The position numbers and the translations under genes are program-made. Shown here one piece after another: positions 2,026 through 38,657 of a DNA stretch of 64,000 nucleotides (position 1 is its first letter; every line of letters begins with the position of its first letter). The stretch is from Felixounavirus LF82P2. Where the stretch lies: sequence record OZ035741.1; one strand, 5' to 3'. Below the pieces are notes generated by a model. It did no database searches. It had not been told where the DNA came from and saw only the letters and a list, made by a program, of their open reading frames with translations.

Positions 2026-2925
2026 TTACTTACCTACTGACAGAGGTGCTTCAATCTTCCCTGCATGTTGGTAGTTGTTAATGCCACCAATAAAATCACT
2101 TGCAGTAAGATGTTTTAAGTCACTTAAAGTGTTAAGTGGTACACCAATCTCAAAAGTAGGTGCATGGAACTCTTCGTTGTTCATCAGTTCATAAACCTGC
2201 TTCATATGATTCTGATAAATCTGAGTATCCCCAAAGACACCTATCAAGTATCGTGGAGTGTACCCAGTCATCTTACAAAGAACTTCCAGAATAAAACCAT
2301 AAGACGCAATATTAAACGGAAGTCCTAAAAAGGTGTCTACAGAACGTTGATACCATTGTAAGTCAACTTCACCTTCGTTAGTGATATAAATCTGAAACAG
2401 AACATGACAAGGTGCTAAAGCCATCGAGTTGGCTGCAATATCTGCTGCATTCCAAGCATTAACAAGCATGTAACGGTCTGTGATATCACCTTTCATCTTC
2501 GTTACTAAGGTCTCTAACTGGTCTACAACACAACCATTATGACCTTCAAAGTTTCTCCACTGAACCCCGTAGATTCTCCCACCTGCATCCTCTAACCAGT
2601 CTTGCTCAGAAGAATAGTTAGAGCTTAACCAGCGTTTAAAGTCATCTGACCAGATAGTCCAGCGTTCTCCATCATTTTCACCCCAAGTACGGTAACGGAG
2701 TTCGCCAAGTTTATTCTCACCATTCAGGAACCATAAAGCTTCCCCAATAACTTGCCGTGTAAACACCTGTTTAGATGTTAAGAGTGGAAAACCAGTACGC
2801 ATATCAAAGCGAAACTGTGGTGGAGCAAATGCAGAGATAACATCTCCAGTTCTTGTAGTACGCAGTTCACCAACGGATAAAACATGGTTCAGTATATTTT
2901 TGTAACTTGAATCTGCTTGTGACAT
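2026..2925 (-). CDS. thyA: thymidylate synthase
   Basis: 299 aa; ThyA motifs including active-site PCH (ALAPCHVLFQ) and conserved N-terminal FPLLTSK region; ORF appears uninterrupted. Confidence 0.85.
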   Translation of the reverse strand: MSQADSSYKNILNHVLSVGELRTTRTGDVISAFAPPQFRFDMRTGFPLLTSKQVFTRQVIGEALWFLNGENKLGELRYRTWGENDGERWTIWSDDFKRWLSSNYSSEQDWLEDAGGRIYGVQWRNFEGHNGCVVDQLETLVTKMKGDITDRYMLVNAWNAADIAANSMALAPCHVLFQIYITNEGEVDLQWYQRSVDTFLGLPFNIASYGFILEVLCKMTGYTPRYLIGVFGDTQIYQNHMKQVYELMNNEEFHAPTFEIGVPLNTLSDLKHLTASDFIGGINNYQHAGKIEAPLSVGK

Positions 2926-2926
2926 A

Positions 2927-3472
2927 TCAAAAGTGTCCTTTTACTTGTGGAACATAGATTTCAAAGGTTGCTTTACCATCTACTGATGGTTTTGACTGAA
3001 TCTTAGCGAAAATTTGACGGTCATGCAACTTATCAAAGAAATTCTCAAAAGGTAGATGCACAGTTGCCTCTTCAGTAACTTCATGGAAAACTGTATGGAA
3101 CACTACATCAGCATACGGTAAAGCACTGACAAGAATACCTACACCACCAATTACGAAGACGTCTTCTTCAATATTACTATCAAGATACTTTAAAAATGCT
3201 CCAAAAGAATCTTGATGAGCCTTAGCAAACATAACATCATCTTTGGTGAAGTCCATACCATAATAAGGCACAGAATTTGTTAAGATGAGGTTTGTACGTT
3301 CTGGTAAAGGTTTATTGCCCAGAGTCTTAAAAGTCTCGTTACCCATAACTACTAAGTTGTCTTTAGTAAGTCTCTTAAACTCTTGCATATCCTGTTTATG
3401 TCTAGGCCACGGCATACCAGTCGGTGTACCAAATTCACCGTTTTCACCACTTGCAAATATTAGCTTAATCAT
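2927..3472 (-). CDS. frd: dihydrofolate reductase
   Basis: 181 aa; DHFR-like N-terminus (IKLIFA..GxxGxxxxMPW) and VVMGxxTF motif; adjacent to thyA. Confidence 0.8.
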   Translation of the reverse strand: MIKLIFASGENGEFGTPTGMPWPRHKQDMQEFKRLTKDNLVVMGNETFKTLGNKPLPERTNLILTNSVPYYGMDFTKDDVMFAKAHQDSFGAFLKYLDSNIEEDVFVIGGVGILVSALPYADVVFHTVFHEVTEEATVHLPFENFFDKLHDRQIFAKIQSKPSVDGKATFEIYVPQVKGHF

Positions 3473-31140: not shown

Positions 31141-31411
31141 AGAAAAGTGGGAGATTTTACCATTAGTCAGTGAAGGAGGTAATGGTTGTGAAATGTACAT
31201 GATACGTGGTCATGTTCCAGAGCCAATTGCACTTGAGATGGTAAACAACTTTACAGATGGTTCTTACAAAGACTTAGGCGAACCAACTGTCAAGCAACAA
31301 TGGGTTAAACCTGTACCAGACAGCACAGGTAACTGTAGTGTACTTTATCACGTTGTAGACCCTGCAAAATGCAAATCTGCAATGGCAGTAACAAACGTAA
31401 CTTTTGATTGA
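31133..31411 (+). CDS. hypothetical protein
   Basis: 92 aa ORF. Confidence 0.35.
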   Translation: MAKEKWEILPLVSEGGNGCEMYMIRGHVPEPIALEMVNNFTDGSYKDLGEPTVKQQWVKPVPDSTGNCSVLYHVVDPAKCKSAMAVTNVTFD

Positions 31412-31422
31412 GAGAGAAAACT

Positions 31423-32304
31423 ATGAAAACATCTATCCGTGTTACAGTTCATTCACCAACTAAAGGGACTCATGAAGAAGAGTTTAACATCGTCCAATTC
31501 CCTTCTGGTGAGATTGGTGGACACTTTTCGCCAGAGTTTGTTGATTTTACTGCTTATGCAGCATCATCCATCAACAATGTGATTATGATTGTAAAAGGTT
31601 ATGACAAGGACACATTGTTTGCTGTGGCACTTGCTAAAGAAGCAATTGATGATTTAATTCCTCATGATTATGCTTTAAAGACTGTCATCTTTTACTACTT
31701 ACCAAATGCACGATATGACCGTCACATGTTTAAAGGTGACGCAGCAGCTTTAAAGGTTTTTGCTAAACAGATTAATGCAATGGGATTTGGCGCAGTCTGT
31801 GCAGTTGACCCTCACAGTTATGTACCAGATAACCTGTTTAACTGCTTCCAAAGTATTCCTCAAAAGGAGATTGCAGTCCACTATGCAAATGACCCTCTAA
31901 TTGATTACTTAGTAGCCCCAGATGCAGGTGCTGCTAAGAAGATTGCAGAGACTGCTAAAGAGGTGGATAAACCATACATCACAATGTCTAAAGTGCGTAA
32001 CCTTAAGACTGGTGAAATTACTGGTATGCGAATCCTTGATGATGTTGATTTGACAGATAAAACCGTCATGATTCTGGATGATATCTGTGATGGTGGTCGA
32101 ACCTTCATAGAAGCAGCGAAGCATCTTCGTGAAGCAGGTGCAAAACGTGTGGAACTTTATGTAACACATGGTATCTTCTCTAAAGATGTTGAAAACCTTC
32201 TTGACAATGGTATCGACCATATTTACACTACAAACTCTTTAGGCGAAGCTAAAGACCGTGGCTTAACACATTACAGTCAAGTTACTGTAGCAAACCTTGA
32301 TTGA
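31423..32304 (+). CDS. phosphoribosyltransferase-fold protein, probable ribose-phosphate pyrophosphokinase
   Basis: PRPP-binding loop VMILDDICDGGRTF; adjacent to nadV. Confidence 0.5.
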   Translation: MKTSIRVTVHSPTKGTHEEEFNIVQFPSGEIGGHFSPEFVDFTAYAASSINNVIMIVKGYDKDTLFAVALAKEAIDDLIPHDYALKTVIFYYLPNARYDRHMFKGDAAALKVFAKQINAMGFGAVCAVDPHSYVPDNLFNCFQSIPQKEIAVHYANDPLIDYLVAPDAGAAKKIAETAKEVDKPYITMSKVRNLKTGEITGMRILDDVDLTDKTVMILDDICDGGRTFIEAAKHLREAGAKRVELYVTHGIFSKDVENLLDNGIDHIYTTNSLGEAKDRGLTHYSQVTVANLD

Positions 32305-32312
32305 AAGTTTAT

Positions 32313-32333
32313 AGGGGCTTAAAAGCCCCATTT
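32313..32333 (+). terminator. rho-independent terminator
   Basis: GGGGCTTAAAAGCCCC followed by ATTTT. Confidence 0.4.
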
Positions 32334-32349
32334 TGAGAGAGATTAAAAG

Positions 32350-34131
32350 ATGACTAAATCACTTTATGCAGTACCAGCAGGTTTAAACGCAGATGCTTAC
32401 AAATCTGGTCATGTTTACCAGTACCCTAGTGCAACAGAGTACTTGATGTTCAACCTGACACCACGTAGTGACAAATGGTTTAACAGCCCCTTAGCAATTG
32501 ATGGTGTAGTAGCTTTTGGTATTCAACGTTTCGTTAAAGATTACTTGATAGACCACTGGAACGCCACTTTCTTTGAACGTGATAAAAAAGAAGCCATTGA
32601 TGAAATCTTAGAAGTCATGAATGGTGTTCTGGGTAAAGATGCTATCAGTCGAGAGCATTGGGAAGCACTTCACGACTTAGGTTATCTACCAGTTGAAGTA
32701 TACGCTGTAGAAGAAGGTACAGTTGTCCCTATGCGTGTCCCAATGATTGTTTTCCAGAACACTGTTTCAGGTTTCCATTGGGTAGCAGGTTATCTGGAAG
32801 ATGCTTTCTCTGCTGAGATTTGGAAGGCTTGTACCATTGCAACTATTGCATTGCACTACAAACGTATCTGTAAGAAGTGGGCTGACCTTACTTGTGACAA
32901 CGACTTACATTTGCCTTATCAGTGCCATGACTTTGCTATGCGTGGTATGTCCGGCTTTACTGATGACGCATTTAACGCTGTAGGCCACTTAACCAGCTTT
33001 AAAGGAACTGATAGCTTCCCTGCTGTGTATACGGCTAAACGAATCTATGGACAGTCCTACCCAATCTCTGATATTGGTAGCTCTGTACCAGCCACTGAGC
33101 ACTCTGTAATGTGTGCAAACATTGCTTGGGAAGGTGGTAATGAGTTGATTGAAGAAGAAAGACGCTTTAAAGGTGAGTTACAAACCTTCCGTCGTTTCTT
33201 AACAGAAACTTACCCAACTGGTATTGCAAGTATTGTTTCAGATACTTATAACTTCTGGAGAACTGTGTCAGAAATCTTACCAGCACTCCGTAAAGAAATT
33301 ATGGAACGTGATGGTAAACTGGTAATTCGCCCTGACTCTGGAGACCCTGTACATATTGTCACAGGTTATAAAGCAATCCACTTAGAGTGTGCTAAAAAGG
33401 CTTATTACGAGCACCTAAGCAAGCTTGAAGCCAGCGACACAATGTTGAATGCTGTTCTGAACATGAAGCTTGAAAACATCAATTATGGTATTGCTGGATG
33501 GCTACTGTCAGAAGGCTACGAAATGGTTGTTGACAGAGAAGACTTTGAAGTTGCTGATACAGTGCTGTTGAAAAATGCTTATATGGTTGGTTCTGCAAAC
33601 GTTGTAACACGTCCTGTAGCGGAGATTGATGGAGCTATCAAGACACTGTATAACATCTTTGGAGGAACTATCAACTCTAAAGGTTTTAAAGTACTGGATG
33701 AGCATATCGGGCTTATTTATGGCGACTCTATCACGCTGGAACGTGCAAACGAAATACTGAAGCGTTTGTATGAAATGGGTTTTGCAAGCTCTAACGTAGT
33801 GTTTGGTGTAGGTTCTTACACTTACCAGTACATGACTCGTGACACCTTTGCATTTGCTGTCAAAGCAACTCTTGCAAGCATTGGTGGTAAAGAGATTATG
33901 CTTGCAAAAGACCCTAAAACAGATAGTGGTGTTAAGAAATCTGCCTTTGGTGGTGTAGCACCTATGTGGGATGGTGATAAGCTGAAAGCTGTAGATGGCT
34001 ATGGATTCCAGAGTTTTGCAGATGTACTTGACCACCCAGCTTGTGCTTTACGTTTAGTCTTTAGCGACTCTGAGCAGTTTGGTTACACAACTCTTGGGGA
34101 TATTCGAAATAATATTGACAAGCAGCTTTAA
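32350..34131 (+). CDS. nadV: nicotinamide phosphoribosyltransferase
   Basis: 593 aa; N-terminal DAYKSGH..YP signature of NAMPT family. Confidence 0.7.
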   Translation: MTKSLYAVPAGLNADAYKSGHVYQYPSATEYLMFNLTPRSDKWFNSPLAIDGVVAFGIQRFVKDYLIDHWNATFFERDKKEAIDEILEVMNGVLGKDAISREHWEALHDLGYLPVEVYAVEEGTVVPMRVPMIVFQNTVSGFHWVAGYLEDAFSAEIWKACTIATIALHYKRICKKWADLTCDNDLHLPYQCHDFAMRGMSGFTDDAFNAVGHLTSFKGTDSFPAVYTAKRIYGQSYPISDIGSSVPATEHSVMCANIAWEGGNELIEEERRFKGELQTFRRFLTETYPTGIASIVSDTYNFWRTVSEILPALRKEIMERDGKLVIRPDSGDPVHIVTGYKAIHLECAKKAYYEHLSKLEASDTMLNAVLNMKLENINYGIAGWLLSEGYEMVVDREDFEVADTVLLKNAYMVGSANVVTRPVAEIDGAIKTLYNIFGGTINSKGFKVLDEHIGLIYGDSITLERANEILKRLYEMGFASSNVVFGVGSYTYQYMTRDTFAFAVKATLASIGGKEIMLAKDPKTDSGVKKSAFGGVAPMWDGDKLKAVDGYGFQSFADVLDHPACALRLVFSDSEQFGYTTLGDIRNNIDKQL

Positions 34132-34145
34132 AAGTATATGATAAG

Positions 34146-34170
34146 AGGCTCCTACGGGAGCCTTTTTAAT
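34146..34170 (+). terminator. rho-independent terminator
   Basis: GAGGCTCC-TACG-GGAGCCT followed by TTTTT. Confidence 0.45.
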
Positions 34171-34181
34171 TTCTGGAGAAG

Positions 34182-34529
34182 ATGATGGATAGCCTTTCTA
34201 TATGGTTTAACAAGAAACCTGTGCAACCAAAATACTTACAAGTTGCCTATACAGACATCCTTGAAGTTCTCGGTAAAGAAAAGTTTGAAAAGTTTTGTGA
34301 AGGTATCTACAATCACCACTGCCAATTTGCTACAAAAGAAGGTATGTTTGTCATAGAACAATTCTTTGGCAGAGACCCAGATGACTATGAAGAGATTAGC
34401 TTTGTAATGAAATACATGATAGATTATATTGAAAATCGTGGATTCGAAGTTAATCCTGAGTTTTATGAACATGAGGGTGTACCTTTAGCAAAAGGTTTTG
34501 ATGGTATACTCGTTAACTGGACTTGGTGA
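34182..34529 (+). CDS. hypothetical protein
   Basis: 115 aa ORF. Confidence 0.35.
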   Translation: MMDSLSIWFNKKPVQPKYLQVAYTDILEVLGKEKFEKFCEGIYNHHCQFATKEGMFVIEQFFGRDPDDYEEISFVMKYMIDYIENRGFEVNPEFYEHEGVPLAKGFDGILVNWTW

Positions 34530-34870
34530 AAACTATGAAAATCAAAGAGATGAATATCAACATTGTCTTAGAAGAACGTTGGGAGAATATTAAGAAACCT
34601 GAAAATGGTCATAAGTTCCTTAACAAAATTTTAGTAGCAGCTAAAGAAGAACTGACTGGTAAGATTGCAGCAGCAATCACAATAAAGGTCTGCGTAAAAG
34701 GTCTTCCAGACAATCACCAATTTGCACTTGACGAGTTTAAAGGAAGCTTCTACAATCCAAACAAACAGATGCTTGAAAGTAACTTTGCAGTGTCTACAAG
34801 TATCGTTCATGACAGAAGCTTTATCCTTTACAAGAATATGAGAGGTGAGTCATGCAAGCATATTGGATAG
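34523..34870 (+). CDS. hypothetical protein
   Basis: 115 aa ORF. Confidence 0.35.
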   Translation: MVKTMKIKEMNINIVLEERWENIKKPENGHKFLNKILVAAKEELTGKIAAAITIKVCVKGLPDNHQFALDEFKGSFYNPNKQMLESNFAVSTSIVHDRSFILYKNMRGESCKHIG

Positions 34871-35028
34871 AAATTTTGCTGTCACTTGGTAGTGTAGCAG
34901 TATTTGTTTACCTCCTTTGTAAGTACTTTGCAGAGCACAAAAAATGTGACTACTGTAATGGAGAGGGGTACATAAGGGCAGGATGTTGCCCTATGTGTGG
35001 TGGTTCTGGTAAAATGTTTAATAAGTAA
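34852..35028 (+). CDS. small membrane-anchored protein with DnaJ-type zinc finger (58 aa, not in ORF track)
   Basis: GAGGTG RBS; N-terminal hydrophobic helix then CDYCNGEG and CPMCGGSG (CxxCxGxG x2). Confidence 0.35.
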   Translation: MQAYWIEILLSLGSVAVFVYLLCKYFAEHKKCDYCNGEGYIRAGCCPMCGGSGKMFNK

Positions 35029-35056
35029 TTTAACAGTAAACTGAGAGGAAAGTATT

Positions 35057-37423
35057 ATGCGCATGGTAAATGACCACGCAGAAGTGATTAAGAGTTCAAC
35101 TTCTTTAGAGACGTCTCAAGCACAGATTACAATGACACCTGAGATGTTCAGCCTTTTGAGTTCTGGTGTATATACCTTTAAAGAAAGGGCAGTGATTCGT
35201 GAACTGTCATGTAACGCAGTAGATGCTCAGAAAGAAGCTGGAAAAGAGAACATCCCATTCCATGTGCATTTACCTACTCGTTTTGAGCCTTACTTCGAAG
35301 TTCGTGATTTTGGAACTGGATTGACTCATGATAAAGTTATGAGTTTGTACCTAAACTATGGAGCTTCTACGAAGAATGACTCTAATGACTACATTGGTGC
35401 AATGGGTATCGGCTCAAAGTCACCATTTGCAATTGCTCAGTCATTCACAGTATCTAGTTATGTTGACGGTGTTGTTAATAAGTACTCTGTTTATCTTGAG
35501 AATGGTATCCCTCAAGTAACTAAGCTGACAACTAACCAAACAAAAGAACCTAATGGTTTAGCTGTACGTGTGGCAGTTGCTGACCACCGTATCTCAAAGT
35601 TCTTTGAAGAAGCTGGGAATGTGTACTCATACTTCACTGTAAAACCAGAAAGTAATATTGAGTACGACGATGTATTAGCAGATATGAACGTAATTGCCCG
35701 TGAAGAAGGTGTTTATGATGCCATGATTCATAAGCACAGCTGGCGTTCTAGTGATAACAGGACAGAGTTTAATGTGGTGATGGGTAACATTGCCTATCCA
35801 GTGAACATGGAAGCGTTACTTGGTGATGATTTCTTCAAAGTCTTGCCAGAGTTTTTCCGTAGGAGCGTAGACCTTGTAAACATCTACATGCCTATTGGTT
35901 CAGTTGCTATTGCAGCTTCTCGTGAAGCATTGCAGATGAATGACACGACAAAAAATGTTATCATTGAGGCTACTAAAAAGATAACTGAAGCAATTACAAA
36001 GGATGTTATCAAAAAGATTAACAATCAGCCCACACTCATGGATGCTGCACAGGCTTATGCTGAGTTGCGTTTGAACTCACGAGAAATGTTTAATGCTGTG
36101 TGTCCAAAGCTAGAGTGGGGAGGCGTTAAGCTTGATTCTCTGGAAGAAGAGTTGCTAAACATTCGTCGCGGGATTATCTACGCAGAAGACGGCTCAGTCA
36201 TTTATGAACGTGACGGTAAAGGTAACATTAAGGTTGATAGGAACGGAAACAACATCCCTAAAGTAGATTACCTTTATGACCCAGTTGCTTATGTCAAGTT
36301 CAACTCTTTAGAGAGTAAGATTCGTGCAACAGCACTTTCCTACACTCAAGAGGCAAGTATGTTCAATATCTTTGGTGCAATGCGTAAAAGCCAAATTGAA
36401 CAGTTTTTGTTTGTTATAAATGACCGTCGCAATAAAAATGGTACTGAGAAGACTGTAGGACGCAATCAAATCTTGCGTGGTGCATGTCGAGACTATGCCA
36501 GTGAGTCTAGTCTGTTTCACAGATACAATGGTATTGTCTTTGTATTCTCAACTGAAAAAGAGTTAGATGACCTAATCAATCTACACAAACTTGATAAAAG
36601 CTTGTTAAAGATTGTGAAGATGTCTGATAAGGAACACCATTATCAGCGTAAAGAAGCTGTAAGAGGTGTTGTAAAACTCTGGAAAGCTGTTCCAGCAGAA
36701 GGTGTAGCTTCCTATAAAGAGGTTTCAGAGGACTTTGATACAATTGAAGAACCCCAGCTTTACATTAAGGCAATTGGTGACACAGTTGATGGTGAATGTT
36801 TTTGCTCATCCCCAGAAGATGTAGCTAAGTCAGTTGCTAATGTTATTGGAAAGACAGTCTATGTTTTCCGAAAAGCAAATTGGAAAAAGATACCAGAAGA
36901 CTGGATTGAAGTAGATGAGAAACTCTTGAACGATAGCTTAACTGATGTTCATTGGATTAATCATAACAGGTATATGACACGTATCTATATGAATGGTGTC
37001 CTTGACCTTACAAGCAGTTGGATTATTGCCAGAAACTTTACGTTCAATAACAGGAAGATTTCTCGTGGCTATTGCTATTCACGGGATACAAACAAAACTA
37101 TCTTCCTAGAAGGTAATGAAGAGGCTGTAGAGGCAATGTTTGGTAAAATCCAGTATGTTGCTGCACCATTTGCATACACTTACACTATTAGTGTGTTGAA
37201 AACTTTGAAAGATTGTCTTGACAACGATACAAAGCTTTACAAGAAAATTAAGAAAGCTGGTGACCGTATGGTTATTAAGGTGACAAACTACCTTTCAAAA
37301 AGAAAACAAGAAAACTTCTTGCTTTCCCATTTAGATTGGAATAAAGTGTCACCCATCGAAGTGAGTAAGTTCTTAGGTTTTGATGTGAAGTGTGTTCCAG
37401 AAGGAACTACAGTTTACGATTAA
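35057..37423 (+). CDS. rIIA-like protein (GHKL-type ATPase fold at N-terminus)
   Basis: 788 aa; N-box-like RELSCNAVDA and G1-like VRDFGTGL; followed by rIIB-like gene. Confidence 0.5.
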   Translation: MRMVNDHAEVIKSSTSLETSQAQITMTPEMFSLLSSGVYTFKERAVIRELSCNAVDAQKEAGKENIPFHVHLPTRFEPYFEVRDFGTGLTHDKVMSLYLNYGASTKNDSNDYIGAMGIGSKSPFAIAQSFTVSSYVDGVVNKYSVYLENGIPQVTKLTTNQTKEPNGLAVRVAVADHRISKFFEEAGNVYSYFTVKPESNIEYDDVLADMNVIAREEGVYDAMIHKHSWRSSDNRTEFNVVMGNIAYPVNMEALLGDDFFKVLPEFFRRSVDLVNIYMPIGSVAIAASREALQMNDTTKNVIIEATKKITEAITKDVIKKINNQPTLMDAAQAYAELRLNSREMFNAVCPKLEWGGVKLDSLEEELLNIRRGIIYAEDGSVIYERDGKGNIKVDRNGNNIPKVDYLYDPVAYVKFNSLESKIRATALSYTQEASMFNIFGAMRKSQIEQFLFVINDRRNKNGTEKTVGRNQILRGACRDYASESSLFHRYNGIVFVFSTEKELDDLINLHKLDKSLLKIVKMSDKEHHYQRKEAVRGVVKLWKAVPAEGVASYKEVSEDFDTIEEPQLYIKAIGDTVDGECFCSSPEDVAKSVANVIGKTVYVFRKANWKKIPEDWIEVDEKLLNDSLTDVHWINHNRYMTRIYMNGVLDLTSSWIIARNFTFNNRKISRGYCYSRDTNKTIFLEGNEEAVEAMFGKIQYVAAPFAYTYTISVLKTLKDCLDNDTKLYKKIKKAGDRMVIKVTNYLSKRKQENFLLSHLDWNKVSPIEVSKFLGFDVKCVPEGTTVYD

Positions 37424-38612: not shown

Positions 38613-38628
38613 TAAGTAATTCTCTTAA

Positions 38629-38657
38629 AAGGCTGCTTCGGCGGCCTTTTTTATTTG
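38629..38657 (+). terminator. rho-independent terminator
   Basis: AAGGCTGC-TTCG-GCGGCCTT followed by TTTTTATTT. Confidence 0.5.

Follow-up and report, generated by a model that had tools for sequence, protein, structure and literature searches.

Anti-TRAP (RtpA; PF15777; PDB 2bx9/3lcz/3ld0) is a soluble, oligomeric protein of 53 aa that binds TRAP in the trp regulon of Bacillus, and it is built as a single-zinc module of about 30 residues with two CxxCxGxG motifs, in which we take C12, C15, C26 and C29 to be the zinc ligands. The same signature is found four times in DnaJ (Hsp40), a protein with two interleaved zinc centres, a J domain and substrate-binding domains. It is also present in LQY1 and CYO1/SCO2, DnaJ-like zinc-finger proteins of plant thylakoid membranes that have one or more transmembrane (TM) segments and no J domain; these eukaryotic proteins are far larger, a disulfide-isomerase activity has been reported for them, and they are compared here for the motif alone.

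In Felix O1-like phages, a small gene for a protein with such motifs and a predicted membrane helix is already known from public annotation, as ORF131 of Felix O1 (Felix01p243, NP_945023.1, 'hypothetical membrane protein'), as the family PHROG 3931 and through a COG0484 note. Orthologues are gene 83 of Bas63 (97% identical) and gp080 of SUSP1, the latter assigned to PHROG 3931 in the CRISPRi-ART annotation table (PMC11879866). The three of them are like the protein studied here in length, TM helix and Cys pattern, and they are also encoded last before rIIA, with no substantive difference. The labels given to the gene are diverse, with 'putative membrane protein' in the Z31 and Bas63 records, 'possible membrane protein' in that of Meda and 'dnaJ / chaperone protein' in that of Erwinia phage Tian, and the relatives found among predicted viral structures are all labelled 'uncharacterized'. 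We analyzed the copy of this gene carried by a stretch of 64,000 nucleotides of Felixounavirus LF82P2 (OZ035741.1), called the window from here on. The window belongs to a Felix O1-like myovirus, and over positions 34400-35300 it shares 99.9% identity with Salmonella phage FSL SP-107 (KC139638) and 93-97% with dozens of Felixounavirus genomes.

A conserved 58-codon gene upstream of rIIA

The coding sequence extends from 34852 to 35028 on the + strand, and its product is MQAYWIEILLSLGSVAVFVYLLCKYFAEHKKCDYCNGEGYIRAGCCPMCGGSGKMFNK (58 aa). A Shine-Dalgarno element, GAGGTG (34842..34847, + strand), is located inside GAGAGGTGA, 4 nt 5' of the ATG, and elements of the GGAG/GAGG type are found 5-10 nt before the start in all of the 12 lineages compared. 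The first 19 nt of the gene (34852..34870, + strand) overlap the 3' end of an upstream ORF of 115 codons (34523..34870, + strand; PHROG 4262, the ORF130 homologue). An identical overlap is present in Felixounavirus, Mooglevirus and Suspvirus, and it is likely to act as a site of translational coupling. On the other side, 28 nt separate the end of the small ORF from the ATG of rIIA at 35057. An earlier sequence-only reading of the window had pointed out this ORF with the same limits and length, its GAGGTG ribosome-binding site, the overlap with the upstream ORF and the position just upstream of an rIIA-like gene, and on all these points the ORF listing and the sequence agree with it. The same reading had called the ORF unlisted, which is true of the track supplied to it, with a cut-off of 60 aa, but not of the databases, as the ORF is CDS SP107_00270 of KC139638 (AGF89424.1, 'COG0484 DnaJ-class molecular chaperone with C-terminal Zn finger domain') and most related genomes have it annotated. 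The match to the PHROG 3931 HMM covers the whole protein (residues 1-58 on profile positions 1-59 of 59; E=1.5e-33).

The coding status of the ORF was examined with 22 distinct Felixounavirus alleles. In its frame pN/pS was 0.09, with 29 of the 44 variable sites at codon position 3, whereas a value of 2.4 was obtained in the frame of a 60-codon antisense ORF (34882..35064); the only other frame with a low pN/pS was the antisense one that shares wobble positions with the sense strand, a recognized artefact. Two CxxCxGxG motifs are encoded, CDYCNGEG (nt 34945-34968) and, six residues later, CPMCGGSG (nt 34987-35010), and they are the only two across all six frames of the window, whereas in 100 shuffled windows the mean number was 0.17 and the maximum was 1, never two. 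Based on these pN/pS values and motif counts, the ORF is a real gene under strong purifying selection, and both a spurious ORF and an antisense gene were discarded.

The protein was detected by tblastn in 263 phage records, in 262 of them at full length, including Mooglevirus and Suspvirus phages with 47-59% identity, and the four ligand Cys and the TM helix described below are retained in the 262 records. Conservation of the frame and of the cysteines in relatives, a point that the earlier reading had left to be checked, is thus observed, and few small accessory genes of the Ounavirinae are as conserved as this one. Frameshifted alleles are present in several deposited or assembled genomes, such as phiWec177 and NJ12, and in at least one of these alleles (P0005) the predicted protein departs at the codons of an A6 run (34939-34944). 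Such alleles are consistent with either dispensability or sequencing error.

The gene order is also conserved. The succession nadV (NAMPT) - variable ORF - ORF130 homologue - small ORF - rIIA - rIIB is common to Felixounavirus, Mooglevirus, Suspvirus and Kolesnikvirus, the small gene being downstream of nadV and directly upstream of rIIA in these four genera of the Ounavirinae. A consensus scan of the window gave a sigma-70-like promoter match, TTGACA-16-TATGAT (34115-34142, + strand), abutted by a hairpin that would be the nadV terminator (34143-34166, + strand). From this promoter to 38563 no terminator match was found by the scan, and the next strong one (38627-38650) is located after rIIB. 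The promoter match is therefore a possible start for a transcription unit formed by the two ORFs, the small ORF and rIIA. In Felix O1, ORFs 129, 130 and 1 (rIIA) showed maximal expression at 25 min in RT-PCR assays that covered 102 ORFs, ORF131 itself not being among them (PMC3185647).

Predicted zinc knuckle and membrane helix

The two motifs delimit a putative Cys4 zinc knuckle at residues 32-53 (34945..35010, + strand), for which zinc binding is predicted from the invariant Cys and Gly residues and the profile matches. Its predicted ligands are C32, C35, C46 and C49, with the spacing C-x2-C-x10-C-x2-C, and since there are two motifs and not four, one Cys4 site is possible and not two. In alignments across genera the invariant positions are M1, C32, C35, G37, G39, C46, C49, G51 and G53, and the Cys and Gly of both motifs are kept from Felixounavirus to Kolesnikvirus and in Krischvirus-type and metagenomic homologues, at identities of 23-60%. 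Other cysteines are frequent but not invariant, namely the juxtamembrane C23 and C45, which forms a CC doublet by the second motif in most members; C45 is absent in P0010, P0088, P0102 and P0108, and in the Erwinia version the extra Cys is placed beside the first motif instead.

A profile built from the family matches each half of the cysteine-rich domain of E. coli DnaJ (1exk) with E=2.7e-11, so that, as judged from sequence, the C-terminal 30 residues correspond to one half of that domain. By contrast, no member of the family passes any curated Pfam or NCBIfam cut-off. The score against PF00684 (DnaJ_CXXCXGXG), a family with four CxxCxGxG repeats and two zinc centres where this protein has only two motifs, was 18.3 bits versus a threshold of 32.7, and the best member (E=3.3e-5) was still below it; TIGR02349 gave 18.6 bits versus 377.2, covering only profile positions 179-212, and DUF5351 19.9 bits versus 27. 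The anti-TRAP models were also missed, with 11.7 bits versus 32 for PF15777 and 14.4 versus 65 for NF058604. The search of defence families with PADLOC returned only a 12-bit noise match. A match below threshold to Gad1 of Pfam (E=0.006), seen for one member, was not judged meaningful.

A TM helix is predicted by hydropathy at residues 5-23 (34864..34920, + strand; mean Kyte-Doolittle of 2.1), and the AlphaFold2 model, obtained with an alignment of 12 sequences and having a mean pLDDT of 78.6, places a helix over residues 4-29 (nt 34861-34938) followed by a small beta knuckle. In this way, the description of the protein in the sequence-only reading as an N-terminal hydrophobic helix, or membrane anchor, fused to a DnaJ-type zinc finger with the motifs CDYCNGEG and CPMCGGSG is supported by the match to 1exk and by the conservation of the helix and the four Cys across genera. 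Regarding its orientation, none of 16 homologues has a K or R on the N-terminal side of the helix, where an acidic residue is usual (E7, E4 or D2), and all 16 have between 1 and 7 K/R on the C-terminal side, generally with one directly after the helix. According to the positive-inside rule, this distribution predicts an N-out/C-in topology with the knuckle facing the cytoplasm, a reducing compartment where Cys4-Zn sites are stable. The argument is weaker for the Mooglevirus and Suspvirus versions, because a net-acidic stretch comes right after their TM helix.

Compared with anti-TRAP chains, the family profile gave an E value of about 0.02, in an alignment of residues 30-53 of the query on 10-33 of anti-TRAP. 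This is the same +20 offset that relates the numbering of the ligands, and the spacing of the presumed anti-TRAP ligands equals that of the phage protein, with two CxxCxGxG motifs and 10 residues between the inner Cys. A Foldseek search of the model against the PDB produced one match only, the anti-TRAP of B. licheniformis (3ld0), with an rmsd of 0.6 Å over 23 residues, 43% identity and a probability of 0.89; its E value of 0.64 is weak because the aligned module is so small. Both proteins, of 53 and 58 aa, are mini-proteins of around 55 aa, too small for catalysis. What sets the phage protein apart from anti-TRAP is a TM helix at its N-terminus, scores that stay under the cut-offs of the family models and a gene located in a phage rII operon context, and to our knowledge neither Salmonella nor E. 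coli, the hosts, has TRAP. With DnaJ, in turn, the protein has in common the motif signature and the similarity to either half of the domain, but it has two motifs and one predicted centre where DnaJ has four and two, and it carries a TM helix and no J domain. On the basis of these comparisons, its architecture resembles that of the 53-aa inhibitor anti-TRAP more closely than that of a chaperone.

A wide search with the family profile, over 1.84 billion representatives, gave 1,688 matches at E<=1e-3. Most of the 19 listed matches whose sequences were examined are multi-repeat DnaJ-like proteins, and the bacterial ones among these multi-repeat relatives start with MKK-type signal peptides, in contrast to the phage protein. 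The full architecture of one TM helix and one knuckle was found, among the matches listed, in only about a dozen clusters, all of them phage-derived or on phage-like contigs. Outside the Felix O1-like phages, this architecture is represented by ORFs of 52-58 aa in Krischvirus (RB49-like) phages (RB49 Q7Y3T0, MIZ3 WNA14696.1), which encode a TM helix, a knuckle and an acidic N-terminus, with 35-45% identity.

Dispensability, proposed role and rival explanations

The orthologues Bas63 gene 83 and SUSP1 gp080 are dispensable in two published phage-wide screens. In the accessible sheets of PhageMaP, a mutagenesis of Bas63 (bioRxiv 10.1101/2024.10.10.617714), the fitness of gene 83 is at least about 0 on S17-1, on a second laboratory host, on the TerY-P strain and on a further defence strain. 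On qatABCD it is neutral (+0.77/+0.66/+0.81), whereas in the same sheet rIIA (g84; -1.26/-1.30/-1.61) and rIIB (g85; -1.05/-2.46/-2.45) are depleted, and the authors name g84 and g85, and no other gene, as co-essential counters to QatABCD. In CRISPRi-ART, gp080 of SUSP1 was scored 'Not Fit' (1.05, p=0.11) and the adjoining rIIA Semi-Fit (PMC11879866). A third source, the HIDEN-SEQ preprint, contains no Felixounavirus data.

With these data, we give about an even chance to the protein being an accessory bitopic membrane mini-protein whose cytoplasmic single-zinc knuckle binds a partner in a non-enzymatic way. It would be the product of a genuine, translated accessory gene of the Ounavirinae, expressed from one transcription unit with rIIA. 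Its four-residue N-terminus, acidic or neutral, would lie in the periplasm, and a single TM helix (about residues 5-27) would cross the inner membrane. The C-terminal 30 residues would then be cytoplasmic, with C32, C35, C46 and C49 holding one Zn2+ in a knuckle of the DnaJ-CR/anti-TRAP type, followed by a short basic tail. A protein of this size leaves no room for an enzyme. Stoichiometric binding is its most likely way of acting, and we conjecture by analogy with anti-TRAP that the tethered module would hold or block its partner at the inner membrane face, the partner being perhaps a protein of the phage, a factor of the host or a component of a defence system. As the phages can do without the gene on laboratory hosts, it must be of benefit only under certain conditions.

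A more specific and rather unlikely version of this role makes the protein the founding member of a group of membrane-tethered, anti-TRAP-like phage knuckles, acting as stoichiometric inhibitors of a host factor associated with the inner membrane. One such target could be an effector of defence or abortive infection that acts on membranes and lies outside the screens carried out so far, and the protein might act on it alongside RIIA/RIIB. Such a tethered inhibitor would account at the same time for the deep synteny with rII and for the absence of a phenotype on laboratory hosts.

The same synteny could also reflect a direct role in the RII system, as an accessory subunit that, through its TM helix, would anchor or help RIIA/RIIB at the inner membrane and be required for their counter-defence function, an idea implied by the position noted in the sequence-only reading and to which we assign a low probability. 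The location of the gene just before rIIA and in the same orientation, with no terminator between them, in four genera is what this explanation would expect, and the order is kept even in a 4-kb metagenomic contig (NAMPT - small ORF - HNH endonuclease - RIIA) despite its RIIA being only 37% identical; the mildly positive, non-significant CRISPRi-ART score of gp080 beside a Semi-Fit rIIA goes in the same direction. Nevertheless, the neutrality of gene 83 on QatABCD in the PhageMaP sheet that shows depletion of rIIA and rIIB, together with the report of g84 and g85 alone as co-essential, argues against it, so that of the implied link with rIIA the conserved synteny stands and a common phenotype on QatABCD does not. 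Moreover, the Krischvirus-type homologues are not near rII, but after a thioredoxin/glutaredoxin-fold gene between nrdG and gp55. Nor do the two genes co-occur in general, as rIIA is present in 2,917 phage records and the small protein in 263. The protein encoded at the same position in T4, rIIA.1, was considered as a homologue and rejected, as it is an unrelated soluble protein of 67 aa without Cys. An obligate role as RII subunit is therefore disfavoured.

If the topology were reversed (N-in/C-out), the Cys-rich domain would be periplasmic and could participate in thiol-disulfide chemistry, as reported for LQY1 and CYO1, an alternative that we regard as quite improbable. We retain it as a lesser rival on account of the additional Cys beside one or the other motif and of the neighbour of the Krischvirus-type homologues, which always overlap by 11 nt the 3' end of the thioredoxin/glutaredoxin-fold gene; the acidic C-terminal flanks of the helix in Mooglevirus and Suspvirus would also fit it. 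However, the N-terminal side of the helix, mostly acidic and free of basic residues in the 16 homologues, is the opposite of the n-region of a signal anchor, and it is the bacterial multi-repeat relatives, by contrast, that have signal peptides. Furthermore, the extra Cys is missing in the four members named above, and the protein encoded by the thioredoxin-fold neighbour is, by default, a cytoplasmic one.

A lysis function is very improbable, whether as an antiholin, as the holin that is missing from Felix O1-like phages or as some other protein that times their lysis. Whichard et al. (2010; PMC3185647) included gp131 among five holin candidates, selected for their TM domains and charged C-terminus, and no holin was identified in Felix O1 according to the CRISPRi-ART supplement (PMC11879866), which counts in favour of this idea. 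The protein is indeed small, has one TM helix and a charged tail (KMFNK or KKFKK), and its gene lies beside the 'lysis inhibition' genes rIIA/rIIB. A sole holin, though, should be needed for plaques, and the candidate was rejected on the dispensability of Bas63 gene 83, on five hosts or strains in the accessible PhageMaP sheets, and of SUSP1 gp080, scored as 'Not Fit'. In addition, there is a single TM helix, the endolysin gene is not adjacent, the flanking ORFs peak with the middle and not the late genes, and the annotation of Bas63 gives 'holin*' to genes 29 and 153 instead. Holins are not known to carry a conserved Cys4 zinc knuckle.

Finally, a bona fide DnaJ-type co-chaperone, as annotated in Erwinia phage Tian and as suggested by the words 'chaperone-like' in the sequence-only reading, is hardly credible and was excluded by domain content, given that, in spite of the CxxCxGxG signature, the match to the DnaJ cysteine-rich profile and the COG0484/dnaJ labels in GenBank, the protein has no J domain (HPD), no C-terminal substrate-binding domains, two of the four motifs and scores below the cut-offs of PF00684 and TIGR02349, and 58 aa of which half are a TM helix cannot hold the missing domains.

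Significance for the Ounavirinae

As it stands the finding has little weight, as both the gene and its domain composition were already public and the gene is dispensable in two genome-wide screens. Some labels should nonetheless be corrected, as both 'Chaperone protein DnaJ' in Erwinia phage Tian and the overlaps with 'baseplate distal hub' elsewhere are unsupported. The value that remains is that of a candidate, located in the neighbourhood of the rII counter-defence genes and with a clear architecture that can be tested, in a group of phages that serve for typing Salmonella, for biocontrol and in phage therapy. Should a partner be identified for the accessory membrane-tethered knuckle proposed here, it would join, as a membrane-tethered variant, the very short list of single-knuckle DnaJ-like inhibitors exemplified by anti-TRAP, and it is on conditional, membrane-proximal interactions between these phages and their hosts that the candidate bears.

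Alleles and homologues of the small ORF

The small ORF (34852-35028, plus strand, 58 aa) contains a run of six adenines (A6, 34939-34944, plus strand), and frameshifted or truncated versions of its protein form several clusters in the database, with a length of 63 aa in P0003 and P0005-P0007 and of 41 aa in P0004. These versions come from phage genomes that are otherwise complete, such as those of phiWec177 and NJ12, and in P0005 the divergence from the small-ORF protein coincides with the codons that make up the A6 run. They could represent either natural loss or sequencing errors at the homopolymer.

In Krischvirus-type T4-like phages the homologous ORF, which also encodes a transmembrane helix and a zinc knuckle, is 52-58 aa long, and in every case it shares 11 nt with the end of an 89-aa gene of thioredoxin/glutaredoxin fold (PHROG 22), as found at positions 2236-2653 of locus L007, 2736-3153 of L047 and 2742-3177 of both L050 and L052. 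Judging from this arrangement, the thioredoxin/glutaredoxin-fold gene is a different coupling partner for the Krischvirus-type homologue, likewise conserved.

Annotation of the locus in related records

The DNA of phage CHB7 (MK562504; locus L006, 2501-2753) carries an intact small ORF (58 aa, 53% identity) that the record leaves unannotated. Its 3' half is instead covered by gp2 (2613-2753), an ORF of 46 codons annotated in a different frame, which is probably a mis-annotation. In the records of Escherichia phage SP22 (LC519489, H47) and Salmonella phage GEC_vB_B1 (MW006474, H69), a "baseplate distal hub subunit" is listed under the small-ORF match, a label implausible at this locus and probably due to an error of annotation transfer. 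The start codon of rIIA also differs between records, in such a way that Meda and Bas63 use the equivalent of the ATG at 35057 (MRMVNDH...), whereas KC139638 (Salmonella phage FSL SP-107) and Z31 use the ATG located two codons further downstream, at 35063 (MVNDH...).

The 3' side of nadV and the counter-defence neighbourhood

A consensus scan detected a candidate sigma-70 promoter (TTGACA-16-TATGAT, 34115-34142, plus strand) matching 11 of the 12 consensus positions, and the terminator hairpin of nadV (34143-34166, plus strand) starts exactly where this match ends, so that a transcript from this candidate promoter would have its 5' end inside the hairpin. The slot of the first ORF 3' of nadV is variable. 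Here it holds a 115-aa ORF of PHROG 20372 (34182-34529), and for many Felixounaviruses the alignment starts only around position 34524. In Felix O1, ORF130 follows nadV directly, without an intervening ORF; in Mooglevirus and Suspvirus the slot is filled by an ORF of 71-73 aa unrelated to that of PHROG 20372, and in Erwinia phage Tian by a ProQ-like gene. From these gene contents, the slot just 3' of the nadV terminator looks like a site of accessory-gene swapping.

Upstream of the small ORF, the interval 31408-34131 contains a ribose-phosphate pyrophosphokinase-like gene and nadV, encoding NAMPT; the orthologues of these two genes in Bas63, g79 and g80, are reported to counter the Sir2-HerA defence (PhageMaP, bioRxiv 10.1101/2024.10.10.617714). 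Given this reported activity of g79 and g80, the small ORF lies between NAD salvage and rII, two modules whose role in counter-defence has experimental support.
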